Positions 11,013 to 55,940 of a stretch of 64,000 nucleotides of DNA are shown here, piece after piece. The stretch comes from Asterionella formosa (Eukaryota). A model generated the notes under the pieces. The model saw only the letters and a program-made list of their open reading frames with translations, was not told where the DNA came from and made no database searches. Each line of letters starts with the position of its first letter. Positions within the stretch are counted from its first letter, which is position 1. The translations under genes and the position numbers were made by a program. The DNA lies in assembly GCA_002256025.1 (NCBI GenBank), contig NKIB01005148.1, positions 1-64,000 on the forward strand. The letters run 5' to 3'.

Positions 11013-12132
11013 CGAGGGTGCCACCTAAAATTGAGGGTCGACTTTTGGAAGATTTTGAACTGGCTGAGAGTTAATGTTGAATCGAGTAAATTCATGTTTT
11101 GGACTAAATATGCTAGATATGAACATAATTGCTCCTTTCCATAGTAGGTCCTACCGAAATGAGATGCGGATTCATAAACATTTTTTGTATTGATATCCTA
11201 ATCACAGAGACAATGAGAAGCGGCAAGTTGTTAACTATGGTTCGCTTGTTTTCAAACACAACAAATTCCTCCGATTCTGGATTGACTTACCAACTATTGA
11301 TGTATTTTCTAAAATTTCTGAATAACAGTGTGTCAGTCCAGTATAACATAAGTGCACATCAATATATTGTTCCGCCGATGTCATTTATAACTTACAGCAA
11401 ATACAGCCCTTGTAGATGATAGTATCTAATTATTTACCTTAGATATTGCGATTTGTTTTTATATATAAAACGCTACAGTGTAGTAGTTGTTGTTGTGAGT
11501 GGCTGGAGAATCCTGTGTCATGCTGTCTCCGCTTTGACCATGACAAAAATAACGAATTTCTCCATGGAAAATGAAATCGATGCTATGCTCTTCGGTAAAT
11601 ATATCGACAGAGATAATAAAATCGTAAAATAAATTGTAATAACGACACAAATATTGACAACGGAAATTGAAGTCACCGATGGCGCATTTCTTCACACAGT
11701 TTAGACGAGTGACGCACAATTCAAAAGAACAAAGAGGTTCCAATGGCCAAGCAAGATTTAACACTTTCACAGCATTCAACACGCTACATTAAGATAATCT
11801 GTGGGTCGAACGAAATTTTGTTTGATTCTCTATTTAACAATATCAATTAATAGTCCATTGATGTTTTCAAAATGACTCTTTCTTTGTTTACGAGTACCAG
11901 TACTGATCCAGTTGTTGACTACATGTGACTAGAAGTTGCTGACTATGACTAGAATTTGCTGACTACCGGTAGCTACGAATAGAACTTGCCAAGTATTGCG
12001 AGAGTGCGGAGCATCATCACCAAAGAAAAAGATGTAAAAATATATGCTGGCTGTATGATGGTGAGCTAAGTATGCCGCAAGACCCCGACGACAACGGATC
12101 ATACCGGTAACGTTTGAAATTTTCCTACCAGC

Positions 12133-12990
12133 ATGATGCGTAAACAAAATGATGTTCGAAGGTACAGATGGCCCAAGCCCAACGTCCTTGTGGCCTTGAT
12201 TGTGGGCATGACGCTCTTGTGGATCATGTTGATAGTTCGATACCTCAAAGGGGCTCCCTCGTTGTCAATGATTCCGGCATCGCATGATGGATGGCACACA
12301 ATCAATGTCTTTTATGGAGAAAAATCCGGCCTCAAAGAAGACATGAATCAAGAGTTTTATGCTCAAGTGCATCAAGATCAAGTACTATTGGACTTGATTG
12401 GTGACAATGGATACTTTGTGGATTTGGCAGCCAATGATGCCAAGATCTTTTCCAATACACTGGTTCTTGAAAGACACGGCTGGAATGGGCTTTGCATCGA
12501 ACCCAATCCTATCTACTGGTATGGTTTGTCACACCGCAAATGCACAGTCGTTGGATCTTTCGTTGGGGCAACCAAAGAAAAAGTACAGGTCAAATTTCGA
12601 GGTGTCTATGGTGGGATTGTGGGCAAGATGGACAATAAATTGGCTAATCGGAAGCATGAGCCCGATATAGAAGTTGAAGAACGGTATACAGCGCCGCTTT
12701 CGGAGGTCTTTGCTGAATTCAATGTACCACGATCAATAGATTATCTGAGTTTGGATGTCGAAGGAGCAGAATTTCTAGTTATGAAGGACTTTCCCTTTAG
12801 TACGTACCACATCAAGGTAATGACAGTCGAACGGCCAAATAAGGATTTGAGAAACCTTCTTGAAGGAAAGGGATTCATATTCCTTAAGGATCTATCATGG
12901 TGGGGAGAAACACTCTGGGCACACAAATCCATGGGCTTGACACCAACCCATCCGAAAATCAGAAAAGTCAAAACTGAAGAAAAACGATAA
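12133..12990 (+). CDS. FkbM-family (Methyltransf_21) SAM-dependent methyltransferase, type II membrane anchored; copy 1
   Basis: N-terminal TM helix VLVALIVGMTLLWIMLIV; motifs FVDLAAND, GWNGLCIEPNP and IDYLSLDVEGAE. Confidence 0.9.
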   Translation: MMRKQNDVRRYRWPKPNVLVALIVGMTLLWIMLIVRYLKGAPSLSMIPASHDGWHTINVFYGEKSGLKEDMNQEFYAQVHQDQVLLDLIGDNGYFVDLAANDAKIFSNTLVLERHGWNGLCIEPNPIYWYGLSHRKCTVVGSFVGATKEKVQVKFRGVYGGIVGKMDNKLANRKHEPDIEVEERYTAPLSEVFAEFNVPRSIDYLSLDVEGAEFLVMKDFPFSTYHIKVMTVERPNKDLRNLLEGKGFIFLKDLSWWGETLWAHKSMGLTPTHPKIRKVKTEEKR

Positions 12991-16930: not shown

Positions 16931-18013
16931 GGGCGGGATGTTGTCGTTGTAGGTGAGACCTGAATAATGCATTGTTTCCATTTCTCTTTGTATGTAACTC
17001 AGGTCCATGATCAATGTCTGTTCTACTACCTGGGTCTCCTCGACATTGGAGGATCTAGTTGCATCATAGATTTCAAGTATACACTATGGCAGACGGAATT
17101 CACCTAAAGCTCATCCATACTACCTAAAGATATGGTATCATCATGTGGAGTAGCACTCGTGCCTGATCTTGAGGTCCATGCTGGCATAGAGATGAATGCT
17201 GTCCAGCAGGTAACAAAACATCTAGCACGAGGTGATCAAATAGCTACACAGAGTAAAGCTGAGCACTAGCTACCAGATAGTATTTCATAAACTGTTTACC
17301 AAAGTATAGCAAGATCAGTGACTATGTTAAGGCAGAGAGAATCAGATGCATCAATGTTATACCATCTGTGACTTCTAGACAAGGTACAGACATTGATACA
17401 TTACCTGTGCACACTGATAGTATAGATGAGCTCCTCATGTTGTCTCTGATCACTTGAATTAAGTATGATGTGATGCCTCCACTTACAATGAATGCTATAT
17501 TGTATACGTAAAATGAAGAAAGCTTAAATCTGGAATGCTGCCAAGATTTACCAAGAGATAAAGTACCAGTACTGGAAGTTGAATAACGACATGAAAGCGA
17601 TCCAACCCTCATTTCGCATCGCTCGATTGTCAAAATGAAACAAAAATAATTTAGGTATCAAAACAAAAGACTAATTTGGATTCTTTTTACAATGTTTTGC
17701 TATTTTGCCCTTTTCGTCGACAAACGTTTTGTAGCACAAAAAAGCGGCTGTATGAAAAAGCAAAAAGGTTAAAGCAAGATGAAATGACTTGACACATCTG
17801 TTTCTCTTACCGGTATCAGGTACCAGGTACCAGGTACCAGGTTACCATCATAAGTTGACAGCATATTCTAAGATTCATTTTCCCTGAGTGAGGACAATGA
17901 GCGATTGCCGCCCTCCACTCACCAAAATTCAAATTAGGCAGGTGAGCTAAATATGCCGCAAGACCCCGACGACAACGGATCATACCGGTAACGTTTGAAA
18001 TTTTCCTACCAGC

Positions 18014-18871
18014 ATGATGCGTAAACAAAATGATGTTCGAAGGTACAGATGGCCCAAGCCCAACGTCCTTGTGGCTTTGATTGTGGGCATGATGCTCTTG
18101 TGGATCATGTTGATAGTTCGATACCTCAAAGGGGCTCCCTCGTTGTCAATGATTCCGGCATCGCATGATGGATGGCACACAATCAATGTCTTTTATGGAG
18201 AAAAATCCGGCCTCAAAGAAGACATGAATCAAGAGTTTTATGCTCAAGTGCATCAAGATCAAGTACTATTGGACTTGATTGGTGACAATGGATACTTTGT
18301 GGATTTGGCAGCCAATGATGCCAAGATCTTTTCCAATACACTGGTTCTTGAAAGACACGGCTGGAATGGGCTTTGCATCGAACCCAATCCTATCTACTGG
18401 TATGGTTTGTCACACCGCAAATGCACAGTCGTTGGATCTTTCGTTGGGGCAACCAAAGAAAAAGTACAGGTCAAATTTCGAGGTGTCCTTGGTGGAATTG
18501 TGGGCAATAAGGACATAAAAATGGTCAATCCGGAGATTGATCCTGAAGCAGAAGTTGAAGAACGGTATACAGCGCCGCTTTCGGAGGTCTTTGCTGAATT
18601 CAATGTACCACGATCAATAGATTATCTGAGTTTGGATGTCGAAGGAGCAGAATTTCTAGTTATGAAGAACTTTCTCTTTAACACGTACCACATCAAGGTA
18701 ATGACAGTCGAACGGCCAAATAAAGATTTGAGAAACCTTCTTGAAGGAAAGGGATTCATATTCCTTAAGGATCTATCATGGTGGGGAGAAACACTCTGGG
18801 CACACAAATCCATGGGCTTGACACCAACCCATCCGAAAATCAGCAAAATCAAAACATTGGGAAAGCAATAA
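18014..18871 (+). CDS. FkbM-family methyltransferase, copy 2
   Basis: Near-identical to 12133-12990 (offset 5881), including about 73 bp of upstream sequence; same motifs. Confidence 0.9.
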   Translation: MMRKQNDVRRYRWPKPNVLVALIVGMMLLWIMLIVRYLKGAPSLSMIPASHDGWHTINVFYGEKSGLKEDMNQEFYAQVHQDQVLLDLIGDNGYFVDLAANDAKIFSNTLVLERHGWNGLCIEPNPIYWYGLSHRKCTVVGSFVGATKEKVQVKFRGVLGGIVGNKDIKMVNPEIDPEAEVEERYTAPLSEVFAEFNVPRSIDYLSLDVEGAEFLVMKNFLFNTYHIKVMTVERPNKDLRNLLEGKGFIFLKDLSWWGETLWAHKSMGLTPTHPKISKIKTLGKQ

Positions 18872-21793: not shown

Positions 21794-24304
21794 TCACCAA
21801 TCACTATCACTTTCATCGACTTGCTGAGGAGGAATGGCAGCAAGCAATATACTTGCCTTGGCCTCTTTCTTTTTCTTCTTTTCCTTTTTGGCAGCCTTGT
21901 CTTCCTTGGACTTCTTCTTCTTTTCTTTCTTCACAGGCTTTACTTCCTCTTGTAGCATTTTTTTGGCTTGTTCTTCTGCGGCTGCGATGGCTGCCAATGC
22001 TGCAGCACTAAGGCATACCTTCTTTTCAGGAATTGGAACCAATGATGATAGTGCTTTTTCAGCTGTGCCATTCATTCCAGATTCTCGCTGTTCGACAGGA
22101 GATTCTTCTTTTCTTGCCTTGAGCTTCGGATCAGCCGGATCTGCAGCTGACACATCGGTGATGAAATTATCGTCATCACATTCGTCTTGATGCTTGTTAG
22201 TATAAAAAGACTGCTCTGGTGCTGGGTTTGAGGGACAGTTTAGATCTAGATCGATTGCACCAACAGCGAAATCATTGTGGTTGCTATTGCTGCTTTCACG
22301 AGTTTTTGCAGTTTGCCCCTCTGATTCTGAAATTTTCGTTTGTTCGAATTCTTGATTACTACTAGGCGTTGAATCTTGAGGTTTAGGCACTGATGGGGGC
22401 ACCTCATTCTCGACTGTATTGCTAGCATCTGATGGCGAAACCTTCGACTCAGACTCACTAGCACTTGGTAATTCTAGATCTTTTGCAGTTTGTGATACAG
22501 TCTCATCATTTTGAAGTCCCGCTGCACTCACTACGTTCACAATGGGTTGTTCTCTATCTTCTTCGGTATCTTGCGGCTGTTCCATCTTATTTGATGTACT
22601 TGATACTGCCGGTATCCCTCCTTCCTCATCATCATCATCATCATCAATGATTAAATCATCCATCTCATCGCTCCATTCTCCTTCATCTTCGTCGCCGCGT
22701 AAAACAGGTAGGCCAAAAATTGGGGAATATTCGAACCTTGGAGGGTGACGAGGAAATTGTTCGTCGACGGGCGACAACGCAATTGGATCATTTACCTCAT
22801 CATTTACCTTATCTTGTTCCATTTCAACATGTTCTGGTGACTGCTCATGAATCAAATATTCGTCGTCGTCATCGCTCCAGGCTCCTCCTTCGTTTTCGTC
22901 GGCATTCGCTCTTTGCGATGTTGACTGTCTGTACGTGGCAGAAAGGACTTCATTTTTGTTCTGGGTTAATTTTGAATCCGACATATCGATCGCAGATACT
23001 TGCATTGTGTTGCTGTGAACTACTTCCGAAGGTGCAGTCACTTCCTTTGATTTCTGATTATTCGGTTTCAATTCCTTTGACTTGCTGTTCAGTTGTTGTC
23101 GATTTTTGCCAGCCTTATTCTCCGAAATAGGTGGTTTCATCACTCCCATCATCTCTTTTGGTGTCACAAATTCTTGCCCTTCTTCCTGTAATTTTCTGAC
23201 TACAGGAGGTGGTTTCTTTGTGCTCAATTTTAGAGCAATAGCTGCAGTCGTTGTTGTCTTTGTAGTTGGAGTGTTTTGTGATGATGGATCTGCAATGGAC
23301 TTTCGATGCCCACCTTCGTCGTAAAAGAAACCATCATCGTCATCTGAATCGCATTCTTCGACTAGATTCTTGTTGGAGTTGTTAGTTTCATTGTCCTCAT
23401 CACTTTCGGCAAAAAAATCTTCCAAAGACGCGGGAGGGAGAATTTTTTGCAAAGGTGGCGGATGTGGCCTCACGACAACACTTCGGCGTTGCATCCCTGC
23501 ATCCTCTGACCACGACACATTATTCTTGTTTGTATTCCTTGGGCCATCGTCTGACTTGAGCAGCAATGATAAAAATTCGTTATACTCTATTGACGGAACG
23601 GTGGATGTTTCGTGTATCAATTTCTGGCAATGCCTTAATTGGTCAGACCATTCAGCTTGTTTTCTTAACAGGTAGCTCCGATAAATAAAATGGTGCAACG
23701 TGTTGAGTCCGTAACAATCTTTGAGCGATGTGGTTCCGACTTGAACCACAACATTGGTTTTCCCCTGATGTTGGTTCAATATCTGCTGTGCAATTTCTTC
23801 CAAGTCGCGTTCCTGTATCCTTTGATGTCTGTATTGTTGGTCTCTGAAATTGAGCAAAATACATAGTGCCATTGGCCGTGTTCGTTGCTTTAGAAGCGAG
23901 GATAGCAGCTTCGCAAAGTACGGACGGATTGATTTCGGGTCGTGCTGTGGATGAACCAAGACGACGACAAAATCAGCCCCTTTGATTCGGTCATGCAGCG
24001 TCTTTGAGTCTGGAATTTCCACATGAAGCTGAACACGATCCCATAGCATAGACTGCGATTGAAATGGTACTATCACTTGTGTGCTTGGCTCTTCTGTGCA
24101 TGGTTTAAACGGATCTTTGCCTTCCAATCTCTTTAATAAGGTTCGCTTACCACTCGACGGTAATCCTAGCACAACGCCGTGCTGTTGGAGCAATGGTTTG
24201 GTCGGTTGAGCTGCTGGTCGTCGACGCCGTCGTCGTGCTGGTACTGGTACTTGACTCCCTTCGTCAATAGGTGCATCTTGAAGGACAGATTCTGTCGTCC
24301 CCAT
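21794..24304 (-). CDS. RABL6: Rab-like protein 6 (RABL6/PARF)-like: N-terminal small-GTPase-like domain, acidic disordered region, Lys-rich tail
   Basis: LGLPSSGKRTLLKRLEG P-loop; LCILLNFRDQ and SLKDCYGLNTLHHFIYRSYLLRK resemble RABL6 VCVLGNYRD and SMKNSFGLKYLHKFFNIPFLQLQ; C-terminal KKEKKKKSK; first ATG at 24304. Confidence 0.7.
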   Translation of the reverse strand: MGTTESVLQDAPIDEGSQVPVPARRRRRRPAAQPTKPLLQQHGVVLGLPSSGKRTLLKRLEGKDPFKPCTEEPSTQVIVPFQSQSMLWDRVQLHVEIPDSKTLHDRIKGADFVVVLVHPQHDPKSIRPYFAKLLSSLLKQRTRPMALCILLNFRDQQYRHQRIQERDLEEIAQQILNQHQGKTNVVVQVGTTSLKDCYGLNTLHHFIYRSYLLRKQAEWSDQLRHCQKLIHETSTVPSIEYNEFLSLLLKSDDGPRNTNKNNVSWSEDAGMQRRSVVVRPHPPPLQKILPPASLEDFFAESDEDNETNNSNKNLVEECDSDDDDGFFYDEGGHRKSIADPSSQNTPTTKTTTTAAIALKLSTKKPPPVVRKLQEEGQEFVTPKEMMGVMKPPISENKAGKNRQQLNSKSKELKPNNQKSKEVTAPSEVVHSNTMQVSAIDMSDSKLTQNKNEVLSATYRQSTSQRANADENEGGAWSDDDDEYLIHEQSPEHVEMEQDKVNDEVNDPIALSPVDEQFPRHPPRFEYSPIFGLPVLRGDEDEGEWSDEMDDLIIDDDDDDEEGGIPAVSSTSNKMEQPQDTEEDREQPIVNVVSAAGLQNDETVSQTAKDLELPSASESESKVSPSDASNTVENEVPPSVPKPQDSTPSSNQEFEQTKISESEGQTAKTRESSNSNHNDFAVGAIDLDLNCPSNPAPEQSFYTNKHQDECDDDNFITDVSAADPADPKLKARKEESPVEQRESGMNGTAEKALSSLVPIPEKKVCLSAAALAAIAAAEEQAKKMLQEEVKPVKKEKKKKSKEDKAAKKEKKKKKEAKASILLAAIPPQQVDESDSDW

Positions 24305-24626
24305 CGTTTCTAATCGTACAATATATACTATATATGTACATATAGTCTGTCGGGTTGGTAATAATAACAATGATTTGATTTTACTCAGGTCTCAGTATCG
24401 TTGAGGTAGTCGGCAACACAAGATAATTTCGGCTTCATTGTTTTCATTTTCGTAAAGTTCCTGCATTTGAACCCCTACCGGTAGGCAAAAATTAAAATAT
24501 TGCTTAGGGTTGCTGAAATTCCCTGGAAACACGAATTTCTATGGAATAATTTTGAACGCCATGATTCTATTTGAAATAACGGTATTTAAGTCATTGGAAA
24601 TTTGCGTGTATTTAAATTTACATAGA

Positions 24627-25281
24627 AGTTGAAACACAGAAGAATTCTTGATTCCTGATTCCCAGTTAGGTCTCCACTTTGCGTGAAGACAACATTTCCC
24701 TACTAGTCGTTGTGTTTGATGGAACAACGCACAATTAAATACCAAGGTTTATAACCTTCAGACATTTGATAAAGAACAATGTTGAAGGGCGAATTCTATC
24801 AAGTTTTCCCTATGTTTACCAAACAAACTTGGTAAACCCTAAACTACGAATGATTGGAGAGACAAATCAGTTCTGTCTAAAGCATTGAAGAACAATCGAA
24901 TCATCCTATTAAAGGATTGAGGAACAATCCAATCATCATATTGCAGATACCTGAAAAGTATCTCAGTAGAGGAACATCTATGTCCTAGAATCTATCTAGG
25001 CTAGATGGATATATATGTTACAAGGAAGAGGATGAAATCTACTTCCCTACAGCTGTAGGAACTTCGAAGAACCTCGCCTCCAAGGAACAAATAACAAATT
25101 CATTTCAGAAACATGTAGGAGTTGCCATGTTTCAATCGAAACTACATTTCAAAATTATATTTAGTTTAAGCTCACTCTTTTAGAAAACACACAAGTGAAA
25201 CTACTAAGATTGTCAACAGAATATTAAAATCGTAAATTGTACTCCGTGTACTCATACTACTCACCGAGTTGATTTCTAACT
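24627..25281 (+). repeat. 5' LTR of second Copia (AGTT...AACT)
   Basis: 24627-25044 matches 35490-35907; right end inferred at TTCTAACT (25281) because a copia-type PBS-like GGTTATTGCAGCCC follows. Confidence 0.75.
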
Positions 25282-25980: not shown

Positions 25981-28900
25981 ATGATGTTGCAGGCAACTAA
26001 ATTTGGACACGTCACCCCAGAAGGACTTCGCTATTCTGGGGGCAGTTTGGATCGTCATTTTATTACTGAAATGTCTCCAATGTTTTCTCCGTATCAGCTA
26101 CGTACAGGAGATACCAAGGAAGTTCGTAGCCTATTTGACTACTGTACCAAAGAGAGGCGCAAGCTCTATAAGGGTCCCACTGGGGATACTACTAAGGACT
26201 ATACCTTGTATGAATTGGAATGTGTAATTCGTAAGGAAGCAGCCATGCTGGGGGTAGACACCTTTTTTTATGCTCCTGATGCAGAGGGTGAGATGTGGGA
26301 CATGGCCACTAATCACTCTAGGATCAAGTTTGCACAGGTCAAACTCTACATTGACAAATGCTTAGAAGTGGAACCTGTCCCAGTGTTTCTACCTAATGAT
26401 CCAGAAATAGAGACAGAAGAATCATATCATAACCAGGCAAAGGTATGGGATAATCAAGCAAGAGAAGATTCAGCACACCTGTGGAGGTTAATTGAATCGC
26501 ATGTAGATCCCAAGATCCTTACTGGTTTATATGAGCGACTGGAGGAATATGGTGATTGGGGTCCAGGTCTACTATTGTGGATGGCACTAATGGATGAGGT
26601 GACATCAGGTTCACCTCAACACATGGATAGTATAGTAGAACAATTTCGTAATCTGTCTCTTTCTAACTATCCTGGTGAAAATGTCTGCTTGCTCGTAAAT
26701 GACGTTCAGGCAACATATAATCTACTGAAGCATGGCAATGCCATGCCTGCTACCATTTCAAGCGTGGCCATTGCAAAGTTTCCATGTTGCAGTGTAGAAG
26801 AGTTCAGAACCCCGTTCTATTCAAAGTCTGTACAGGTAGATGATGAAGGGCGCTCCCTACTTGGTAAGGATGTAGGGACAATTCTGGCATTTCAGAGTAC
26901 TTCTCTGGGTGTAAGTCCTTATGCGAGTTGGCAATGTCCAGTTTTAAGCGTCTAGTTGATTATGACCGCTGGCCACCTCTGAAGACATTACCTAAGTTGC
27001 AGTCAGATGCCCTTCCCAATGCCTATCAAGCAGCAGTTGTTGAGGAATTAAAGCTGCTGTGTAGGAATCTAGGTAGTATTGAAGACTCTCCCGACATTTT
27101 TTGTTATAAGTGTGGAAAAAGGGGCCATATTAAGCCTAACTGTCCAGAAAATGATATGCCTGGAGGTGAATTCAAGAAGAAGGACTCAGGTCCAGAAAGG
27201 ATGAATTCCAAATGCTTCTGGAAGGACATTCCTCCTACTGATGGTTCTCTTAATACAATCAATAGGGACGGAAAAATATGGCATTGGTGCGCGAAATGTC
27301 ATGGCGGGGAAGGCCGTTGGTCCACTACACAGCACTCCACAGCCACCCACACAGGAAGCCAGCCAGTTAAAAACCAGGGTGCAGTAGCAGGTCTAGCTCA
27401 TGCAGTCCTCAACGTGGATGATGCACCAGAGGAGGACGCTACACTTGTTTTTACCCCTTTTGGATATGTTGCTGCCAGTAGTGAAGAGAATGTAGAATGG
27501 TTAAATGGTTAAATGTTGTCCGTGATTCGTTGCATGCTCAACAAGTCGACGCCAGTCTGAAATCCCCATGCGTGACTCCGCCACCATTGGGCCCAAATAG
27601 GACTACTATCCTCCCCACAGGCTACCTCTCTAGTACAGACGAAGACTGTGACATGTTCTTTGATTGTGAATCAGATGTCCATGATGATGAATTCACAGAA
27701 ATGATGGAAGTGGAACAGATTAGCTTAGTCCGTGCAGTCTTGTCTGGTCGCATTTACTGCTCTACTAGTGAGGCAAGTGACTCCGATGATGAATTGGGTA
27801 ATGAGGACCACGATGATCACACGTGGTTCACTAGTACCTTCTGAGTTGCCTGCCAGCAGCGATGCGTCACTGTTGGCCCTACAAATTTACATGAAACCGA
27901 CAGTAAACTACATGAAATATATACACCAGAAATAAATATATTAAGTTCTAATGAAAAAATAAAACCAAATGAAATGGATTCAAACACCATGTTCAACAAC
28001 AAAGATGAACATTTCTCCGTTATTTGGGATACTGGGGCAACACGCCCCGTAAGCGCATATAAGAGAGATTTTGTTGGGGAGTTATCAATTCCCAAGGCAC
28101 CATTACGCCTGGGAGGGATTGCTTCAGGCCTTGGTGCTGTAGAAGGCATAGGCACTGTCCACTGGACTTTTCTATCTGACGATGGACGTTTGTTGCACCT
28201 GTATCTGAATACATACTATGTTCCTCAGTGTACACAGCGTCTTCTATCAGCACCCCAACAAATATTCTCTAAAGAACAAGGTTTTACCGGTCAGTTTGTC
28301 ATACTGGATGACTACTATGCCCAGCTACTGATAGATGGTAAACCACCTTTAACTATTTACTATGACCCAGTCAATGACTTGCCAACAAGTCGAGCAATTC
28401 GTTCTGCTACTGCAGGCCAACGAGAGGAGTTCATATATCTATGCGTCACCGAAGACCGCAATCAGAATTTAACAGAGGCACAGAAGGAGTATCTGCGTTG
28501 GCACTACAAACTGGGACATTTGGGCTCTGCTACAATACAGTGGTTATTACGACAACCGTCATTTGGTAACAATCTCAAGAGTCGAGCAGCTGCCCGTTGC
28601 ACTGCACCTAAGTGTGCAGCATGTGAGTACGGTAAGGCCCATAGAAAACATTTAAAAGCCGCAATCAGAATTCCTTCGCCTGAGAGGGAGGGAAATGTCA
28701 AGTCTGGTGATCTATATCCAGGCTCAGGAGTGTCTGTGGACCATTTTGAATCCTGTGTCCTCGGACGACAATATTCTTCACGAGGAAAATCACAAGATTC
28801 TTGCATGTATAAAGGGGGCTGTATTTTTGTGGATCACGCATCAGGCCTTCTTTATGTCCACCATCAGGTGGGATTTTCGGCAACCGAAACACTCACTGGA

Positions 28901-29996
28901 AAGCAGCAGTTCGAGAATTGGGCTTACAATCACGGTGTTCTTGTTGCATTCTATATGACTGATAACGGAACATTCGGCGCTAAGGAGTTTGTTGACGCAA
29001 TTATTGTGCGAGGACAACAAGCAAGTTAAATACTGTGGAGTTGGTGCACACCACCAGAACGGTGTTGCTGAAAGAAGCATACGCACTGTATCCAATATGG
29101 CACAAGTCATGATGCTACATGCATCTATAAGATGGCCTGAAACTGCTGATGCAACCCTATAGCCTATGGCAGTTGATTATGCTGCGCATGTCTATAACCA
29201 TGTCCCAGGCATACGAAAAGGTCAGTCACCAGTGGATATATTTACTGGGTCTCTAATACCCAGGCATGGTCTTAAGGATTTACATGTGTGGGGCTGTCCA
29301 TCAAAGATGCAAAATGGCATGAAACTGCCCAGATGGGAACCAAGATCTCGGCGTGCTCTGTTTGTGGGAATGTCCCCTAATCACAGTAGCAACGTGCCCC
29401 TGGTACTAAACTTGAAGACTGGAAGTATATCACCTCAATTTCATGTGGTGTTCGATGACTTCTTTTCTACAGTGATGTCCATTCCAGAGGGAGATGACCC
29501 CACAGCATACTGGAAGAATATTTTCAACGAATCACGCTTTCAGGCGTATTTTGATGAACATGATTTGCCTACCTTACAGGAGGAATGGACCGAAAACGAT
29601 GATTCCTACCTAGACAAGAAACGTCATATGGAGGCTAAGGTGTTACCCACCATGGGTCTAAACAGAGATGAGACGCCGTCTTATCTTCAGAGGGAGTCAC
29701 CAATGCAGGTGACTATGACACAAGAAAGAGGGTCACCATTGTCTCCTGGTGTTGCTGTACTTTCGCCCATTGAGATACAGAGTGTACCAGCACGGATTGA
29801 TGCAGTGGATGCTAATAAGTGGCTGCATAGGCTACCACCCACTAGATTGGTACAAGAATCGGCAGTGACCATTCCACCAGGAACAGTAGTGTCACGGGAA
29901 CCACAAGAGAACATTCCGCAAGGAACAGGAGTGGAGCAAGAACACGTGGAGATGCTGTCCCAAATGTCTACTTGCCCACCACAGAGGCGTAGCTAG
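25981..29996 (+). pseudogene. Copia gag-protease-integrase, frameshifted
   Basis: ORFs 25981-26955, 26928-27512, 27497-27844, 27974-29029 and 29166-29996 with domain motifs in Copia order. Confidence 0.9.
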
Positions 29997-35489: not shown

Positions 35490-35907
35490 AGTTGAAACAC
35501 AGAAGAATTCTTGATTCCTGATTCCCAGTTAGGTCTCCACTTTGCGTGAAGACAACATTTCCCTACTAGTCGTTGTGTTTGATGGAACAACGCACAATTA
35601 AATACCAAGGTTTATAACCTTCAGACATTTGATAAAGAACAATGTTGAAGGGCGAATTCTATCAAGTTTTCCCTATGTTTACCAAACAAACTTGGTAAAC
35701 CCTAAACTACGAATGATTGGAGAGACAAATCAGTTCTGTCTAAAGCATTGAAGAACAATCAAATCATCCTATTAAAGGATTGAGGAACAATCCAATCATC
35801 ATATTGCAGATACCTGAAAAGTATCTCAGTAGAGGAACATCTATGTCCTAGAATCTATCTAGGCTAGATGGATATATATGTTACAAGGAAGAGGATGTAA
35901 TCTACTT
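35490..35907 (+). repeat. 3' LTR of second Copia, apparently truncated
   Basis: 418-bp match to 24627-25044 with two mismatches seen by eye; preceded by a PPT. Confidence 0.92.
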
Positions 35908-41360: not shown

Positions 41361-43825
41361 TAACAGGTACCAGGTACCATCGACATTGCCCTATCGTTCA
41401 CTCATTTCAATTCCGACTTGAACACTTTCGCTAATATTCTAATTGTATACTATCGACTACAAATTTTTTGTGTGCAATCTGCCCTTAATTGATTAAAAAA
41501 AACGATGCAAAACGGATCTCGAGAAATAGTGCGAGATGATACATGATGCAAGCAACAACCATCCGTAATGACAAAACAGGCACGGAACGAATCATTTCAT
41601 ATTGAATTTGAAGTGCGAAACTATATATCTATTCTGGTTGATGTCTGTTATCGACTGCAAATCTTTGGAATGCTATTGGGCATGAATTGATGGAGAAAAT
41701 CGAAGCGATGTGGTTGTCAGCAACTGGATGCATGAAGAATATCAACAATCATCCTTACCATCGGCATTGTCAGCATCCAATATGAATTCTTTTATTCTTT
41801 TACATAAATTATATTTCGTATGAATTCTTAAGATACAAAATATATGGATAACATACCTGTATTGTGACTATGTCTGGAATGGCAACGTAATGCATGCTGA
41901 GTGCATTGACCTCAGCTAATGAATAGGTGGCTAGGTAGGACCTGGGACCAGGTACCGGTATACAAGGCCTACACAGGTCTAAGTTATGTTTATGTAAAAC
42001 GAATTTTTTGATCCTACTTATGAATCAAAAGTACGCAATGACATACATACGAACACTCCCGGTATGTTATAATGAAGCAATTCCCGCTCCAGCTATCGTC
42101 TTGCCATTCGGGTACTTTTAAGTAATTTTTAGGCTGTAAGTAATTTCTTGGGGCACACCGAATTTTTCGGCAATAAAATTGCTGATTTTAGCATGACAAC
42201 CAGAATAACGGTAATATGCATAGAGATGGTACAACAAGCGTAAAATACATGAGAATGATTGTAACATGCAACATCAATGAAAATTTAACATGATGTTTGG
42301 AGCAACCAAAGTATGAAATGCAATGTAATGAGTAGCGTCAAATGAGAAATAGAAAAAATTGTTTTGGGTTAAAAATAAAGTTTAAAAAATAAGAGTTTCA
42401 ATGGAGATGTATGCATTGTGACATTGTAGTACTTACACAGGCAATTGAATTTCCATCACCACACAATCAATGACCAAAATAAGAAGGGAAAAAGCTGAAC
42501 CCAATCTTGACCTGCATCGTTATGTAGCATAGACGATCTGCTTGTTGTAACCATGCACATCGCTGTAGGAGCCTGACACCAGTTGCAGTCCTTCCGCCCA
42601 CAGTCCCTGTTCCTTCCCACCAAACAACCCTGATCATCATTCCATTCCAATTCATTCTGATTCAGTATAATCGCCAGGCTGCTCCAGCACTATCGACTCC
42701 CTCTAGCTGAATGTACGTAGCTTCTGATACAAACTCATAGTTGATTGTAGCACTGCTCCAACTGTGAGTGCCTCTCCCAGTAACTTGTTGCTTAGATCAA
42801 TGGAACTCCTCATCGCCGACTCTTTGTGTCACTTGTCTCATCATTGGTGGATTGTGGATGTTCCTGAAGAAGCGCCACCACCTGTGCCAATTTGCTGCTA
42901 CTGGTAGACGTAGAAAGGTCAAGCTCAACTATTATGGCTTTATTGACCTCCAATGCTTTCTTTACTCCCAATTCCAGTCAGTGAGATTGAGATAGAGGGA
43001 AAATTCAACTCCCAGCCTTCCATGCGTCTCTCCGAATATGATGATGGCAGAAATAATGATACCAATCAGTCCAACAATTTCCTTACTTGTGCTGCTCTCA
43101 TTCCAGTACATATGAGAGCTTTGTATACCAGCCAATGGTCAAAAAAGGGAGAAATGGGTCTCCATTGACATGCTCTTTCATGGACTCATTAATGATCAAC
43201 TAGAATTCATTAGGTTCCAACAATTATATGAAGAATATTAAAAAGGTCTTGTCTTCCAAAATTGCTTGAAACCATGAATCTCCCACATGCTTCCTCGTCT
43301 AGAATGGAAGAAACTATGCCTGAAAGGATCATTTGGATTTCAATTTCTTTTGTGTTTTGGATGTCATGACATTTCTGATGATAAAATGGAAACACTAACC
43401 CATATGCCATTGCCTGCAAATGAAAAGTATTTTATTTGTATGATGCATCTTACAATGGTGATAACCTAATTTTTTAAATAGCCCCCAGACTAACATACCA
43501 CAGTCATATGAATAAAGCAAAAACCTATTTTTCCCACTTCTCAAAATCAAGCGATGAGTTGCAAGTTCAACGTGGTGACTACTGGTATACATTATAAGTC
43601 GTAATAAAAGTATCATGTAATGAAATTCAAATTTGATTTCCAAAAATGATTTCCCCCTTATCAAGTCAAAAAATGTATTGTAAATTCAAAATTATTACTA
43701 TAATGCTCCAAAAATCATCCAATATTGTGCTGGGAATATACAATATTGTTTTATAGCCTTGTAAATTCTCAACCACGAGAAATGACATTTAACATTCAAA
43801 ATGCAGAAAGAATACAAAAAACCAA

Positions 43826-46586
43826 TCATTGATATAAACCTTGAAATTTCTTCTTTACCCATATGATATTACCAGCACGGTCCAAAACAGGATTCAGGTG
43901 GTTCTTCCACTCAGAATGCTTATCCTTCTGAGCCTTTTGAGAAATTACTTCATATGATGCTCCAACAATTTCAGTAAGTTTCTTCCTATCCAATTCAAGA
44001 GTAGAATTATTTTGAGTAGCACTTATGCCAGTGAGGAATTCTTCAGTACTTGCGATGAGCTCTTTTGTAAGTGGATCAATTATCATATCCATGAAAAATT
44101 TCTCGATTGATTCTATTGGAAAATGAATACCAGTGGTAACTATGCCAGCAGATACGGCAGCTCTAAGAAGTGACATTGCACATTTGATGGCAGGTGCAAT
44201 ACGTGTCACCCATTGCTTGGTAACCTGTGTAGTAATACAAGTTTCTGTTACAACATCAAATGAATGCTGACAAACAAAGAAAATCAGCACTTCAGTTTTT
44301 ATCCACTTTTTTGGCAATGTCATGATATTGCTTGTGGCCCCTGCTTGTTTACTGGATGGTACAATATAGACAATTCTGGGACATTTTGCATCCACTCCAG
44401 CAGTAAGATTGGCAAGGGCCTGTGTCATTCGTAAAAATTGACTGGCTACATGAGTGATCTGCTTAAGAATCTCTTTTTGGTCCTGCAAGAGATTGGACCA
44501 CATGCCATTTTCAGTTTGTTTCTTCATGTGAAGGTCATACAGATTACAGGACATGAAAGGGTTATTGAACATTTCCTTATTTGAAAAAAACTGGTCACAA
44601 CCAATGATTGGGCACTGAATGGTCATATCACCAAGATGCGTGATGACATGATCCTCAAAGCATTGTTGGCATGTGGAATGGTTTTGGCAAATGGAAACAG
44701 GAGTAGAACGTTTGGCGCACAAGACACACAGTTCAGCGCTTTCATTCAAGCTCAATGTTCCCATTTTTCCACCACAGGATGCTGTGGGACATCCACTAAC
44801 ATTATGATGTGTTTGACTTACAAGTCGACCCATTTCTTCAACCAATTCACTAGTCTTTGGCCTTTTCTCACGATTTGTCTGAATGCAACGAATGGCTAAT
44901 GAGCACACAGAAGAAAGACTTCCACCTTCCCATTCATCTGCAAGAGGATCAACATCCTCCACCAATTTTGGAATTGCCACCTCCAATGCCTGAGTTGGGG
45001 TCCCTTCAAAATTTTCGGGGAGGTAGCGTTCATGGAACTCTTTCAGTCTACCAAATTGGAGGCAGCCTGTTACAAGCTCAATCATGACAATGCCAAAAGA
45101 GAAAACTTCACACGATTCTTCATATGTCCGTTTTCCACGACAATACCATGGACATATAAAGCCAGGTTTCCCAAAGACTCCAACATGTGATGTGTTCCGA
45201 ACTGAAAAAGGAATTGCACTGGTTGAAGTGGAATCATCCACAGGCACAAACTTGGCTAGGCCACAATCAATCAGTTTGGCAGTATAGTTCTGTTGAAGGC
45301 AGATATTAGCCGACTTTATGTCGCGATGAAACAGAATGAAGTTGTCACTTTTCTCAGAATGAAGGCAGTTGATGGCACGAATAATGTCGAACATGATTCG
45401 AAGTCGTCTCTCACTCGAGAGACTTGCCATGCTTTGTTCACTCGCATAAAATTTATCAAGCGAACCCTTGGATGCAAACTCATACACCAGGTATTGAGAA
45501 GGCGAACCAGGGGACAAATGATAGCCATACAAAGATACAATATGGGGGTGTCGGAACCTCTTTAATGCCTAAAATAGTATAGGAGAAGAATGAGACACAT
45601 ACAGTTGTGACATGAAATCCAATAGGTATTACTACACATGCACTTACCTCCAATTCAATTTTAAAACTCTTGCTAACTTGCTGCAACTTATCTTTCTCAG
45701 CAGCGAGATTGAAAAGAATACGTTTAACAGCAAAATACCGATTGTCATCCTTGCCTTTGTAGACAGCACCAAAAGCTCCTTCACCAAGTTTGAAGGCTTC
45801 ATCAAAATTGTTTGTACAACTTATAATGAATTCAACAGGAAGCTCGATTGGTCTTGAATTCACATTGTCCATAGCTGCCTTCATGTTCGATCGACCTATG
45901 GAAATTGGATCTGTGGGATTGTTACTGCTTGGTGTTGGAGTTGTTGGGGAAGACGGATGTGATGCATTTGATTTTGTTGTTTTTGAGATTTGCTGAGTTG
46001 TTTTGGCTGCCAATGGTTTGCGGTACTTGTTTGCATCAACAAGATCTTGAATATCATTCAGTATATTATCGCCAATTGAATTCCATTGGAGATTAACTGT
46101 AGTCAAGACAGTATTGACCGTGAGGGCCTCTGCAATGGACTTGGCGCCCTCATCACCAATTGAATTCCATCGGAGATAAAGTGAAGTCAAGACAGTATTG
46201 ACCTCGAGAGCCTCTGCAATGGCCTTGGCACCATCAACACCAATTGAATTATTCCAGAAAGAAAGTGTAGTTAAGACAGTATTGATCTTGAGAGCCTCCG
46301 CAATGGCCTTGGCGCCATCAACACCAATTGAATTATTGTCGAGACAAAGTGAAGTCAAGCCAGTATTAACCTTGAGAGCCTCTGCAATGGCCTTGGCTCC
46401 ATCAACGCCAATTGAATTACTCCAGAAAGAAAGTGTAGTCAAGACAGTGTTGACCTTGAGAGCTTCTGCAATGGCCTTGGCCTTGGCGTCATCGTCACCA
46501 ATTGATTTGTTGAAGAGAGAAAGTGTAATCAAATTTGGATCATTTGCTTTCAACCTTTTGACATATCTTTCCAATTTTGTTTCCAA
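43826..46586 (-). CDS. LRR - IRAK/Pelle-like kinase - RING - Roco/TORNADO1-like C-terminal domain protein; intron 45569-45647; 5' start unresolved
   Basis: Six 28-aa RNI-like LRRs; GEGAFGAVYKG, AVK, HRDIKSANI, DCGLAK; GTAAG...TAG intron joins KIELE|ALKRFRHPHIVSLYGY in frame; CVLC-C-H-CQQC-CPIIGC RING; tail CPRIVYIVP...FVCQ...IAP...GNIIWV. Confidence 0.88.
46070..46540 (-). repeat. 84-bp tandem repeats encoding the LRRs
   Basis: GCAATGGCCTTGGC/CCAATTGAATT recurring every 84 bp. Confidence 0.92.
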
Positions 46587-48041
46587 CCAAATAATTGAAA
46601 CATTGTCAATGTCGTCTTGAATGTAATTGAAGTTGTTTATTGTTTATTCGAGCGACTTCTTGTTTGGTTCTTGTTCGAGAGAAAGTGTTTTGTATTACAA
46701 AAACTTCTTGTGAGGATATATCTCGAGTCCTATTGCCAAAATAGGTTCTCTACCCCTTGTCGTAGAATTCTACGCAAAAGATACAACTCATTCCTCAGGC
46801 ATGATGTCTGAAATTTTGTCCATCCTCATTTCTACACATATACCGGTATGTATATGATCCATAATGACGATTGTGATACTTTTTAACTATGTAACAACAA
46901 ATATCGTTATGTATCCGATTCGACTACCGGTACATAGGAGTGATGAAAGGGCTTATAAACCCGTAAGCATTTTAAAAAATTTGTGCATTACAAATATTGG
47001 TATATGGAAATATATGAATAAAATTTTTATACTAGCTATAGGTACACATTCACATAGGGGATTTATAGTTGTGTTATGATGTGGTCCGCCTCTTGGCCAA
47101 GAATATCCATCTGTTCTTCCTCTGTGGCTCCGTACAGAAAGGTCCATACACTTTTTGCATAAAAGTGTCCGAAAATGCATAATGGGTTAGTCGGGGGAGC
47201 TCGGGATTACTTATTTGACTAAATTTGTAGCAAATCAATATTAATTTCAATCAATGATAGAAACGTTTCCTAACTAAGTTTACAATGACTCTTTTTAGTT
47301 AGTATATTGAAAATCGAATAATAAAAATATAATTGTGCTTCTGTACATTTTGTCAAGAAATCGGATGCATAATGTGTCGGATGTAATTACATTTTCGACA
47401 TAGAACACATCATACATGCAACATACCTTGTACCGGCACATACTTTGTACATTCCGTGTAAAGAGCTATGCATATTATATATGCTTGGCATACATCCTAC
47501 TGGGTATGTACTACCAGTTCTTGAATGTTTGTTTGTACAGGTGCCTGCGGTATGGGGTCGATGAGACAGTAACTCCATCTTGACCATGACGAAATTATGG
47601 AGATGAATATCTTCACGAATATTGACAATGAGCAATTCCTATTTCACACGTGTATGAACACTAACATAGACGAGATTATCGTTCAATAATAAATATTTTT
47701 GCACTAGTATTGACAACAAAAAGTTGAAATCGGCGCGGGAAGTTGTTTTTGGTCGCCATTTGCTCAGTTTTTAAGATATGACCAAAGTAGCAACAGTTTT
47801 GAGTCCGCGATGATTCGCTTGATAACTTTGACTAGATAAGGTTTTCTATGTTTTGTAGAAATAGATGAGAAAACTTGAGCGACAGTATTCTTGGTGAGGG
47901 TACAACATTTCAAGATGCAACAAATTCCTCTACGTCAATTTTGTAGTGACTTTCATGTACACACTAATTGTCGTGGTTCATATTTCTATGGAATCTTGAT
48001 AAGGTCATTTGACAGCTTACTATAGACATACTTTTAGCCAT

Positions 48042-52049: not shown

Positions 52050-55000
52050 ACCTATGAAAAGGTTTGATACGACGAATATTACTTTGTTCTGTAATATGCA
52101 TAGAGCGTTGAAAAGTAACTGTACCATTGGCATGTACTTGAATAATAGAATAAGGACCTCGTCCATGATCATCCAAAGTAGTAGGATTATCCAATAGTAT
52201 TAAAATCTCATCACCCACTTTGTAATCATAAGATCGACAACGGAAATTAACACGACGTAGCTAAGCGTTCGTCGATTATCACTTGTCGACGTTGATGTAT
52301 TAATTGTAATTCTGTAATCAAAGGAATATTTAATATCATATCACGTTGAAAAACCCATGCGCCTGGTGAAATACGTAATATACTATGAATAGTAGTAGTT
52401 CGAGCTGCATATGATGCAGTTGTAAAACATGTATCCACAATATTTTGGGCTTGAAATTCATTCCTTGGAGGATGAGCCTTTAACATAGCTAACTCGTAGA
52501 CTATTACTGATAGATTGATGTAAACGTTCACAGATAGCATTTGCTTGTGGAATCTTGACTGTAGTAGTCACATCTTTAATTCCATTCAACACTAACATGT
52601 GTAAGAAAGGAACACCAGTAAATTCACCTCCATTGTCATGTATACAACGTTCTGGATGGGGATATCTGGCTAACCAATCATTTTCAAATTTCATTGCAAT
52701 ATATTCTTATGTTTTATTTTTGATACGTGAAATTTCTGCCGAATTGGTGACCGTATCAATACAAGTTAGCTAGAGCACGAAATTCAATCTCTTGAGTAGC
52801 CACTGTTATCCTCCATGGACCTATTAAATCTACTGCGACTTCTGACTATGGTAATAACAATGCATTCCTGGGTGGAATTTCACCAAAACCAGTACCAGGT
52901 AATTTTGTACGTTGACATGCTTCACATACTCTTACAATATGTTCCACTCTTGCTTTTAATGTAGGGTGATAAAAATGTGTAGCAATTGTAGCATTTAATC
53001 TTGTCATACCCACATGAGCTAACATCTGATGATACCAATTAATAATAGGATCCAATAATGATTTAGAAATAGCAATACGCCAAGTATCTCCTGGATTCTT
53101 CACAAAACATATAAAAAATATATCATGAAAATTGATAGAGGGAAATTTTAACGGATGTGTTTGTTGATTGAGAATCAATTGTATATTCAGCAATTGTCTA
53201 TCATGTATTAAGTTATAATCCAGAGGATATTGAATATTGTCTGTCAAGATTGGATGATTAAGGAAACAGGTAAGCAAAGGTTCATCATCTAATTCAATTG
53301 AAAAAGTAGAAGTGGAAATTGATGTTGGAGATTTCGGTCCAATATCAATATCATCCTCCACCAAAGACTCAAGTCTCGGGAGGCGAGAGATGGAATCTGC
53401 AATAGCATTGTCAGTCCCTTTTACGTATTGAAAATTAGGATGATATTCTTCAATATAAAGTCTCCATCTGAGAACACGTTGAGTATGTAAAGTATTATAA
53501 ATAAGATTTCGATTATCAGTGTGAACATGCAGAACTGCACCCAATAACATAGAGCGAAATTCTTTGAAAGTTTCTGCCACAGAAAGTAATTCTTTTTCAA
53601 TAGTAGTATAACTCTTTTGAGCAGCAGATAATTTTGCGAGAATAATAAGCAACTCTCAGATCATTTTGCATAATGACCGACCCTAATTGATAATCAGCCA
53701 GAGGCATCAGTAAAGATATGAAAAGGAAGATTATGATCAGGATGACGCATGAGTATCTGCAATCAACAACGCTTTCATTTCTTCAAAAGCTTGTTGATGT
53801 ACAGATAACCAGACAAATGGACTAGTTCCAATGAAATCTGTAAGTGGTCCAAGAACATGAGATCTTCTAGGAAACTTGTCTCGATAGTACATAACAGCAC
53901 CAAGAAATGATCTGTCTTGTTTAAGATTGGTAGGTGAAGACATATTAATCAATGCTTGGACCTTTTTAGACCAAGGTTTCAGTCCATCAGGAGTTAACCA
54001 ATAGCCTAACCAATCTGTCTCTTAGACTGCCCATTCATATTTAGATGGATTAATTGTAAAACCATTTGTCTGTAAACGATGTAAAATAGTTTCCAATAGA
54101 TGAATGTGATCCGAAAAATTCATTGAAAAAAACCCACGTCATCAATATAAATGTCCACATCATCTATATCACTAAGAATCTGTTCCATAGTTTCTTGTGC
54201 AATATCAGATGATTGTTTCACCCCCATATGGAGAAGTAAATATTTATATAAACCAAATGGAGTTGAAATAACACACAAGTTTTGACTCTCCACATCTAAT
54301 GCGAAAGTATAGTATTGCATAGAAAAATCCAATTCGGTGAAGAATTCATATCCAGCACGTTTAGTGAGAATAGTTTGTATTCGAGGCAAAGGATATATAT
54401 TGCGATTGATGACTTTATTGAGTTCACGAAAATCTGATACCCATCGGACACTTCCATCCTTTTTAGGAATAATAAAAGTGGGAGACGCCCATTTAGAAGC
54501 ACCACATTTTTGTAGGACTCCAATATCACACAACCGTTTTAATTCGGTTTTGAACACTTCTAAAGCAATGAATATGAGCGACCGGAGATGCTCGTTGATG
54601 ACGAGGGATGGCATTTGATAATAAATCCAAATGTACCTGTTTATGAGGATAAACTTTTAATTTTACATCAAATAATGTTTGATATTTAACCAATAGAGTT
54701 CGTAAGCATGACTGTTGCGTTGTTGTTAAATGCATCTGTTTATTCACCACTGTATCAATATTCACATAATTATATTCAGCAGCTTTAATTTCCAGCGCAT
54801 ATGATGATTCCACAATCATAGGTGCATCAAAATACAATAATAAATCACGTAAACGTTCTCCATCATCAAAGAATGTGAGAGGATGCATATGAACAATCAT
54901 ATTCATACAGGACATGGTATTATTTACGAAATCAATGCCTAAACCAACTTGACGAAGGAAATCACGTCCTAAAATAGCATCAATTGTGCATAAACCATTA

Positions 55001-55940
55001 AAAACTTGACACTTTTGTTGTAAAACATGAGCAGATCGATTTAATTCAGGTAGAATCAGGTTATATCATAAAATAACACTGTCAATGTTTAAACCAACTT
55101 GATGAAGGAAATCACGTCCTAAAATAGCATCAAATGTGCATAGACCATTAAAAACTTGACACTTTTGTTGTAAAACATGAGCAGATCGATTTAATTCAGG
55201 TAGAATCAGGTTATATCATAAAATAACACTGTCAATGTCTAAACCAACTTGATGAAGGAAATCACGTCCTAAAATAGCATCAAATGTGCATAGACCATTA
55301 AAAACTTGACACTTTTGTTGTAAAATTTGAGCGGATCGATTAAATTGCGGTAAAATCAGGTCATATAGCATGACACTGGCATGAGATGAATAAGTACCAG
55401 CTATGGTATGTATTCATTGGGAAGTCTTGTTAGACAAAGAAATGCCTTGAGGCATAACCCGTTCATGTATTAAGGATAACGATCCTCCACTATCAAATAA
55501 TACTCGTAGTATTTTTTATGCATAGGCATAGCATCCACCAATCGTGGCGCTAAAAGAGACATCGGAATCAGATCAATTGACGCTAATATATACTTAGAAG
55601 TAAAACAGGAAACCGGAATTGGGCCCTGATATGTATGTGGAATGTCATGTCCATCGATGCATTTATGTATGCCCCGCGTTACAGCAACAGCGGTATCCAT
55701 AGTGTATTCAACCTGCAAATAAAAAATATTATCCAGGTGATGACTAACGTGAGATATACTCAATGAGTCATTATAAATAGCATCACTTTTATCGCACATA
55801 CCTCTGTAATGGCGATCAGCGGTAGCAAGCTGTTGTTGTGTAGTAGGGACAAAAGTCACTATATGACCAGCAGAAGGGTTCGTGACCACTGAAATTTCCT
55901 GGGCAGATGTATTCTCGGTAGGATCGGCACGTGGCACGCA
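52050..55940 (-). mobile_element. Ty3/Gypsy LTR retrotransposon pol (PR-RT-RH-IN), degenerate
   Basis: DAILGRDFL, WASPTFIIPKKDGSVRWVSDFRELNK, IYIDD, YTTIEKELLS, HVGMTR...[26 protein letters not shown] motif; PPT-like GTGGGAGAG at 52022-52030 on the minus strand. Confidence 0.93.
54932..55378. repeat. 150-bp tandem triplication within the Gypsy protease
   Basis: AAACCAACTTGA at 54941, 55091 and 55241; units nearly identical. Confidence 0.95.

Follow-up and report, generated by a model that had tools for sequence, protein, structure and literature searches.

The contig NKIB01005148.1 of the diatom Asterionella formosa (assembly GCA_002256025.1) was analysed over its positions 1 to 64,000, and this whole stretch of 64 kb is referred to below as the window. 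A minus-strand gene of two exons (exon A, 46643-45648, and exon B, 45568-43829, in a stop-to-stop reading) was found in it, the predicted product of which carries six leucine-rich repeats (LRRs) of the RI type, a linker, a protein kinase domain of the tyrosine kinase-like (TKL) group, a Cys/His finger, a long helix and an alpha/beta tail of about 190 residues, in that order. The undescribed tail domain and the family defined by it are the main interest of the locus. The coordinates of the gene and of the other features are collected in Table 1.

Gene model and order of domains

The two open frames form one reading frame, since removal of the 79-bp intron joins them in phase, and the same removal restores a single protein kinase domain from the Pfam Pkinase match, which the intron divides so that exon A covers profile positions 5-43 and exon B positions 52-259. 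Three metatranscriptome runs and one DNA run supplied contigs for a comparison with 43600-47400 at a likeness of at least 90%. A splice joint that links 45569 to 45650 across a single letter was found in the RNA runs X11 and X14 (one contig each, both from one study), its shorter side being 97 letters long; it corresponds to excision of the 79-bp intron with one mismatch and was not seen in the contigs of the DNA run X1. The RNA contigs are 90-99% like the window, and the splicing is therefore that of the gene or of close relatives, not necessarily that of this locus; one RNA piece, covering 45874-46118, differs from the window in 1 of 245 letters. A single frame after intron removal had been proposed by a first-pass annotation made from the sequence alone, and it was borne out by the GT..AG stretch, the in-phase open reading frames (ORFs) and the continuous kinase profile, as well as by the joint in the RNA contigs. 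A tblastn search within the window returned no paralogue of the LRR-kinase gene.

Table 1. Features of the LRR-kinase gene, from its 5' to its 3' end, followed by those of the remaining window
Feature	Position	Strand	Remarks
In-frame TAA	46644..46646	-	directly upstream of the LRR frame; stop-to-stop ORF starts at 46643
ATA codon	46640-46638	-	candidate mutated ATG
First ATG of the presumed 5' leader	46601..46603	-	one base off the LRR frame; 17 codons to TGA
Exon A open frame	45648..46643	-	332 codons (P0002); N-terminal cap, LRRs, linker, kinase N-lobe
Six RI-type LRRs	46023..46532	-	28-30 aa each; Pfam LRR_6, E 5.1e-21, above the curated cut-off
Ser/Thr/Pro-rich linker and juxta-kinase segment	45795..46022	-	from the translation
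Predicted protein kinase domain	44789..45794	-	interrupted by the intron; TKL, RLK-Pelle-IRAK-like; HRD, DCG; Pfam Pkinase, E 3.4e-24
Intron	45569..45647	-	79 bp, GT..AG, within the kinase N-lobe
Exon B open frame	45568-43829	-	580 codons (P0001)
Cys/His finger, C3HC4 spacing	44597..44728	-	C-x2-C-x9-C-x2-H-x2-C-x2-C-x15-C-P-x3-C
Long single helix, probable coiled coil	44399..44563 (approximate)	-	between finger and tail
C-terminal tail domain	43829..44389	-	187 aa, alpha/beta; five strands and several helices
Stop codon	43826..43828	-	C-terminus agrees with close homologs; P0003 and P0004 share the final residues
RVT_2	972-1598
Long ORFs	4923-8588 and 21794-24391	-	1221 and 865 codons; no family match
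FkbM-type methyltransferase ORFs	12118-12990 and 17999-18871	+	290 aa each; Methyltransf_21, E 3e-13 and 2e-12
Gypsy-type fragment	52846-53655	-	RT RNase H and integrase zinc-binding domain

The six LRRs and the Ser/Thr/Pro-rich linker of the first-pass annotation were confirmed by the LRR_6 match, by the translation and by the DNA itself, in which the repeats are encoded as 84-nt direct repeats (46065-46484) that are 80-84% alike, a likeness that suggests recent turnover of the repeat units. The juxta-kinase segment behind them is presumably in the style of plant receptor-like kinases (RLKs). No segment of transmembrane grade was found between the LRRs and the kinase in a Kyte-Doolittle scan (exon A maximum, 0.92), and the sole 19-residue window above 1.6 was located inside the kinase domain, in agreement with the earlier claim of a protein without a transmembrane segment. 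Additionally, a Pfam scan of both exon products gave no Death-fold family and neither NACHT nor NB-ARC.

The kinase retains the G-loop, the AVK lysine, the alphaC glutamate and the HRD motif, with DCG at the DFG site and the Asp of that motif kept, and by these catalytic residues it would qualify as an active protein kinase. The best solved relatives of the C-lobe were found to be plant RIPK (E 1.1e-21), PBL2, Pto and LysM-RLKs, followed by IRAK1 (8e-18) and IRAK4 (6e-15), so that the domain is assigned to the RLK/Pelle/IRAK group of TKL by best match among solved structures, and the earlier label of an IRAK/Pelle-like kinase holds at that level. The likeness to the receptor-like cytoplasmic kinases (RLCKs) and the RLK-Pelle kinases (RIPK, PBL2, Pto), as well as to IRAK1 and IRAK4, thus comprises the C-lobe (E 1e-21 to 1e-14), the G-loop, the AVK lysine and HRD. 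Nevertheless, the Death domain of IRAK is missing from the window protein, as are the transmembrane and extracellular parts of an RLK, and the family differs from both RLCK and IRAK in having DCG for DFG and, in addition, a C-terminal finger, coil and tail. DCG had been recorded earlier in place of DFG, beside intact HRD and AVK motifs; the motifs were found as described, and DCG proved to be the family norm and not decay, because 34 of 42 family kinases with HRD carry it (the others being DFG in five, DYG in two and DFR in one). A paper on the oomycete kinome reports Thalassiosira pseudonana to be without detected IRAK-like kinases (PMC3019232), and against this background the presence of an IRAK/RLCK-like family elsewhere among diatoms deserves some notice.

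The finger was aligned in the window protein and 26 relatives, chosen from the proteins behind 58 local phmmer domain rows. Eight ligands (C11, C14, C24, H27, C30, C33, C49 and C54) are conserved among these 27 sequences, four being invariant and four present in at least 90%, and the family pattern, C-x2-C-x9-12-C-x2-H-x2-C-x2-C-x15-C-P-x3-C, is that of C3HC4 RING spacing. An RBR-RING1-like finger had been proposed earlier; a Cys/His finger is indeed present at 44728-44597, but an RBR ligase is rejected, as Pfam scans of the window protein and its relatives gave no IBR and no RING2 and only one RBR chain was matched, at E 0.095, while the identity of the finger as a RING stays below statistical threshold. 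The last ligand pair, C-P-x3-C, is in our view reminiscent of RBR RING1. The helical stretch that had been noted after the finger was recovered as a long helix over residues 2-40 of a 231-residue query (AlphaFold model 1), and the only fold matches of this helix were coiled coils (Z 5.5).

The tail domain and its family

The tail motifs quoted in the first-pass annotation (CPRIVYIVP, FFVCQH, WVTRIAPAIK, GASY and GNIIWV) are all present in the translation. No Pfam family was found for the tail, either in the window protein or in all 40 members of the tail alignment A1 at E ≤ 1, and a sequence search of the Protein Data Bank (PDB) gave no match; a PDB profile search with A1 returned nothing on the tail, the ankyrin matches obtained arising from C-terminal extras of two members. 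The tail was modelled together with the helix (model 1; predicted local distance difference test, pLDDT, 80.7; predicted template modelling score, pTM, 0.72) and as the globular 187 residues (model 2; pLDDT 85.1, pTM 0.80), the latter with five strands, of which two are C-terminal, beside a helical bundle. Foldseek gave 0 matches at E ≤ 1e-3 for both models against the PDB and for model 2 against BFVD, and the ESM Atlas had no usable match to the tail query (best score 0.88, under the lead level). In an all-against-all fold search the best Z of model 2 was 4.2, lower than unrelated models usually reach; the tail is a candidate new fold, a novelty that a best Z of 4.2 does not prove.

Residues 262-580 of exon B, searched against 1.84 billion representatives, matched 173 clusters at E ≤ 1e-3, 65 at 1e-10 and 6 at 1e-30, at least two of the listed matches (P0091 and P0131) being C2H2 arrays that match the finger part only. 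A profile of the tail (A4), built from 24 tail-only sequences, recovered 148 of 159 stored proteins at E < 1e-3, scaled to the whole library. The proteins with TIR, Kelch, DTC, U-box and Ras domains matched this profile with E values of 2e-16 to 1e-54, although it had been built without them. The fusion partners were then counted in a rough census of 86 relatives scanned with Pfam. A kinase was present in 51, which include seven with ankyrin repeats and kinase and two with LRR_6 and kinase (P0043 and P0062); seven further proteins carried ankyrin repeats without a kinase, among them P0060, in which the repeats follow the tail. RING and Deltex DTC were found in two relatives (P0100 and P0119), and TIR_2 (P0129, a cluster of 8 members), Kelch (P0132), U-box with Sel1/TPR after the tail (P0155), C2 (P0029), a Ras-like domain with ankyrin repeats and two tails (P0099) and DUF6824 (P0123) in one each, with no family in the remaining 20. 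P0099, an environmental protein of 1744 aa, consists of a Ras-like GTPase, ankyrin repeats and tails at residues 1128-1307 and 1484-1608. By its profile matches, the tail is a real and recurrent domain, and by the census it is a mobile terminal module that combines with sensor repeats, a kinase of the immune type, TIR and ubiquitin-ligase modules of three kinds.

Among 118 tails, the positions conserved in at least 80% were C396, P397, P404, F431, C433, W453, P459, W554, W570 and V571, all of which are held by the window copy. C433 was conserved in 98%, P459 in 99% and His435 in 63%, and no Asp, Glu, His, Lys, Arg, Ser or Asn reached 80%; a set of conserved C, P, F, W and V residues with no polar one would suit a binding module better than an enzyme. 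The relative from a named organism, Fragilaria crotonensis KAI2491617.1 (P0066, 1406 aa, annotated as 'serine/threonine kinase'), shares repeats, a DCG kinase and the tail with the window protein, but its repeats are ankyrin repeats instead of LRRs and the identity of the tails is about 28%. One other tail relative comes from a marine eukaryote transcriptome set and the rest are environmental, while viral contigs searched with a single protein contained no relative. A full-text literature search returned nothing on the LRR-kinase-finger-tail architecture or on the tail, within the collection and terms used.

The 5' end, the condition of the copy and its surroundings

The gene had been placed from 46586 onward and called near-intact. 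No start codon lies at or near 46586, the frame opening right after the TAA (46646-46644), which leaves the earlier claim of a missing signal peptide without a defined N-terminus, and intactness is doubtful, as no in-frame ATG precedes the LRRs; the first one in the exon A frame lies behind them, in the linker. The minus strand from about 46780 to 46604, read directly, contains no ATG. The RNA contigs of relatives reach about 46774 and none goes beyond, and a far-upstream exon is therefore not suggested. In P0062, a full-length LRR-kinase-tail relative, about 42 residues stand ahead of the first LRR helix, which is the distance expected were 46603 the start in the family, and this ATG would, we infer, come into frame if the short T run behind it differed in length by one base.

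Residues 1-60 of exon A had no homolog, and a profile search for longer relatives gave 3 matches only. Three metagenome loci were found, in the best of which (L001, 59% identity) the likeness begins only at the 'LERYVKRL' stretch, so that the start was not settled by it. Positions 1-1485 of L001 contain a similar RI-type LRR frame ending in a stop and then an ankyrin-like frame, as judged by eye, and the locus may represent another repeat combination of the tail family or an unrecognised intron. The length of the 5' leader differs among copies, as seen in the contigs of relatives. These show a 3-nt insertion in the GAC-GAC run at 46610/46611 (one RNA contig), a 1-nt insertion at 46659, ahead of the frame, in both RNA and DNA contigs, and a 'goes back' joint of 43 nt at 46655/46613, with which the in-frame TAA would remain.

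It is a serious possibility, at somewhat less than an even chance, that the window copy is a young pseudogene or disabled allele that has lost its start by a one-base frame change after the ATG, and this would be compatible with the explanation given below for the family. The absence of an in-frame ATG before the LRRs, with the sole ATG of the leader (46603) one base off and closed after 17 codons, speaks for it, as do the fit of P0062 to a start at 46603 and the transposon-rich surroundings. The DNA contig of run X1, which may be the source sample, is identical to the window over 46460-46626, and the frame problem is thus not obviously an assembly slip. Among the residues in which the window copy is odd (T134K and Y137F in the P+1 loop of the kinase, D154E and R47M), the P+1 loop substitutions are unusual, with Y in 34 of 34 relatives at the site of Y137F. 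Against a pseudogene, 912 codons are open without an internal stop or frameshift, 59 of 62 family-conserved positions are kept (mid-range among 35 relatives, which have 0-9 deviations), near-identical RNA contigs exist for parts of the gene, such as the 245-nt piece with 1 difference, and an unrecognised 5' exon or a non-ATG start may be involved.

The window is rich in transposons. Two 300-nt direct repeats (24627-24926 and 35490-35789) are 100% identical and 10.9 kb apart, and ORF matches to gag-pre-integrase and retroviral SH3-like domains lie between them at 27845-29996 (copia-type gag/integrase remnants); repeats and ORFs together look like a young copia-type long terminal repeat retrotransposon. 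A 150-nt unit occurs in three tandem copies, which are 84-97% alike, at 54932-55381. At 47156-47400 the summed contig depth of the DNA run is in the hundreds of thousands, whereas most of the gene stays in the thousands; this depth, read neither as copy number nor as expression level, points to a highly repeated element that lies some 500 bp upstream of the gene. The earlier statement that this is the only host gene in 40 kb of transposons was overstated, because the window also contains the two FkbM-methyltransferase ORFs and the two long ORFs without a family. The former lie within a direct duplication, 5881 bp apart and 99% identical over 300 nt; the latter matched neither a Pfam family at E ≤ 1e-3 nor a PDB sequence at E ≤ 0.01, and the one at 4923-8588 is situated in a stretch of higher GC (0.45-0.47).

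A proposed docking-tail signalling family and the alternatives

The explanation preferred here, with a probability of about one half, is that the gene is a member of a large cytosolic multidomain signalling family, represented in one named diatom and many environmental contigs, in which the tail serves as a docking module. The LRRs would bind a protein or ligand in the cytosol, and this binding would control the kinase. The finger and coiled coil may act like the RING-coiled-coil of the TRIM/TRAF ligases, in oligomerisation and possibly in the recruitment of an E2 ubiquitin-conjugating enzyme. The tail would dock the protein to other tail-bearers (TIR, Deltex-type RING-DTC, U-box, ankyrin, Kelch and Ras-like proteins), much as animals use Death-fold domains to join MyD88, IRAKs and their partners, and the window copy is perhaps a recently disabled member of an otherwise expressed family. 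The earlier idea of a sensor, a kinase and a ubiquitin ligase fused in one protein survives at the level of architecture (repeats, IRAK/RLCK-like kinase and RING-like finger), its Roco chassis does not, and an immune role of the LRR-kinase-tail protein would be plausible, with indirect support from one relative in which such a tail is joined to a TIR domain. The comparison with TRIM/TRAF E3 ligases is supported by a C3HC4-spaced finger, a long helix and a globular C-terminal domain in the same order and by weak matches of the finger to TRIM RINGs (TRIM2, E 0.025; TRIM32, E 0.023). The window protein differs from them in having no B-box, MATH or SPRY domain, in a RING below significance and in an unmatched C-terminal fold that differs from theirs.

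Several observations weigh against this explanation. Pfam RING-type models matched at most 4 of the 27 aligned fingers, all under threshold, and in the PDB profile search of the finger C2H2 fingers ranked first (YY1, with 5e-9 summed and 0.006 for the best single stretch), although these matches run through a linker-like stretch and a His pair at C2H2 spacing is not conserved in the family. Next came TRIM RINGs, with E values of 0.023-0.5 (best, TRIM32), and an hhalign comparison of the finger profile with two Deltex-type proteins with Pfam-verified RINGs gave a probability of 0.2%. The finger therefore has the eight-ligand spacing of a RING with statistical support below threshold, and its identity as a RING is unproven. 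The adaptor role is inferred from the logic of domain architecture only, and Cys433, at 98%, could be the sign of a catalytic or metal site instead. Since most relatives come from short environmental contigs and are fragmentary, 'kinase only' often stands for a truncated protein in the census, and the Fragilaria protein is the only relative from a named organism. Lastly, as the LRR frame has no in-frame ATG, the window copy may yield no full-length protein.

A less likely, though still tenable, alternative is that of an ordinary cytosolic signalling kinase family unconnected with immunity, with a role in stress, morphogenesis or the cell cycle, the transposon setting being incidental. RI-type LRRs and ankyrin repeats are general protein-binding modules, and the lack of NACHT and NB-ARC in the Pfam scan of the window protein agrees with such a role. 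However, the kinase is closest to immune-type RLCK/IRAK kinases, the tail is also fused to TIR and to Deltex-type ligases, the family is large with shuffled domains, and the likeness of the LRR units in DNA suggests recent repeat turnover.

A bolder form of the docking reading is considered tentative and was judged slightly less likely again. The tail would then be a new homotypic assembly domain that wires TIR proteins, LRR or ankyrin IRAK/RLCK-like kinases and RING-DTC or U-box ligases into one diatom network for defence or cell death, a counterpart of the animal Death-domain (Myddosome-type) system. In animals, Death-fold proteins include MyD88, IRAK and ankyrin- and LRR-Death architectures, and the likeness, one of logic only, consists in a single terminal domain on TIR, IRAK-like kinase, ankyrin and LRR proteins. 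The two systems differ in that no sequence or fold relation exists between the alpha/beta tail and the six-helix bundle of the Death fold, and homotypic binding of the tail is putative. A two-copy complex prediction for coil and tail, made without the alignment and on an uncertain fold, scored 0.00, a value that speaks neither for nor against self-association.

A catalytic tail dependent on its cysteine, such as a ubiquitin-relay or peptidase-like module, which would work with the finger, DTC or U-box and not as an adaptor, was considered improbable. Such a function would account for the conservation of Cys433, with a His two residues further on in 63% of the tails, and for the repeated adjacency of E3-type modules (finger, RING-DTC and U-box), and the RBR RING1-like look of the last ligand pair of the finger would also suit it. 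Nevertheless, no second polar residue is conserved in at least 80%, so that no dyad or triad is visible, no fold match to a hydrolase or ligase was found, and the tail also occurs with ankyrin repeats, Kelch, TIR or C2 and without an E3 module.

The reading of the first-pass annotation, an immune receptor on a Roco-like chassis with kinase and RING replacing Roc-COR and a TORNADO1-type post-COR tail, was largely refuted and retains only a marginal chance, as Roc and COR, the pair that defines Roco proteins, are missing and the tail has no solved relative. N-terminal LRRs in a large multidomain cytosolic protein are shared with Roco proteins, and LRRK2 also has LRRs and a kinase in one chain. 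A Pfam scan of both exon products at E ≤ 0.1 gave no Roc, Ras or COR, and the 40 tail relatives scanned at E ≤ 1 gave no Roc or COR. P0099, a distant tail protein, does carry at its start a small GTPase with a match to the Roc model (1.8e-12), but this GTPase scores far better as Ras (2.5e-32), with no COR match. Structures of Roco proteins and LRRK2 are contained in the PDB, and neither tail model matched any solved chain, a comparison made with structures and not with the TORNADO1 sequence itself. In a review passage (PMC4104024), Tornado1 consists of LRRs of the RI type and, at the C-terminus, ROC-COR, and no tail beyond these is mentioned there; the LRR type is the only feature that it has in common with the window protein. 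Similarly, LRR-ROC-COR is given as the common plan in a paper on brown-alga ROCO proteins (PMC11378527).

The value of this single locus is lowered by the possibility that the copy is disabled, and the family-wide DCG motif is a small biochemical curiosity. The tail, as a candidate new fold with a nearly invariant cysteine, is worth a structure. To our knowledge, very little is known of how diatoms sense viruses, bacteria and parasites, and few recognisable immune receptors have been found in them. If the homotypic-assembly reading were true, the window gene would be an LRR-sensor member of a Death-domain-like network that evolved independently in diatoms, and the domain-shuffled tail family would offer a concrete and testable entry to the intracellular signalling of these organisms.

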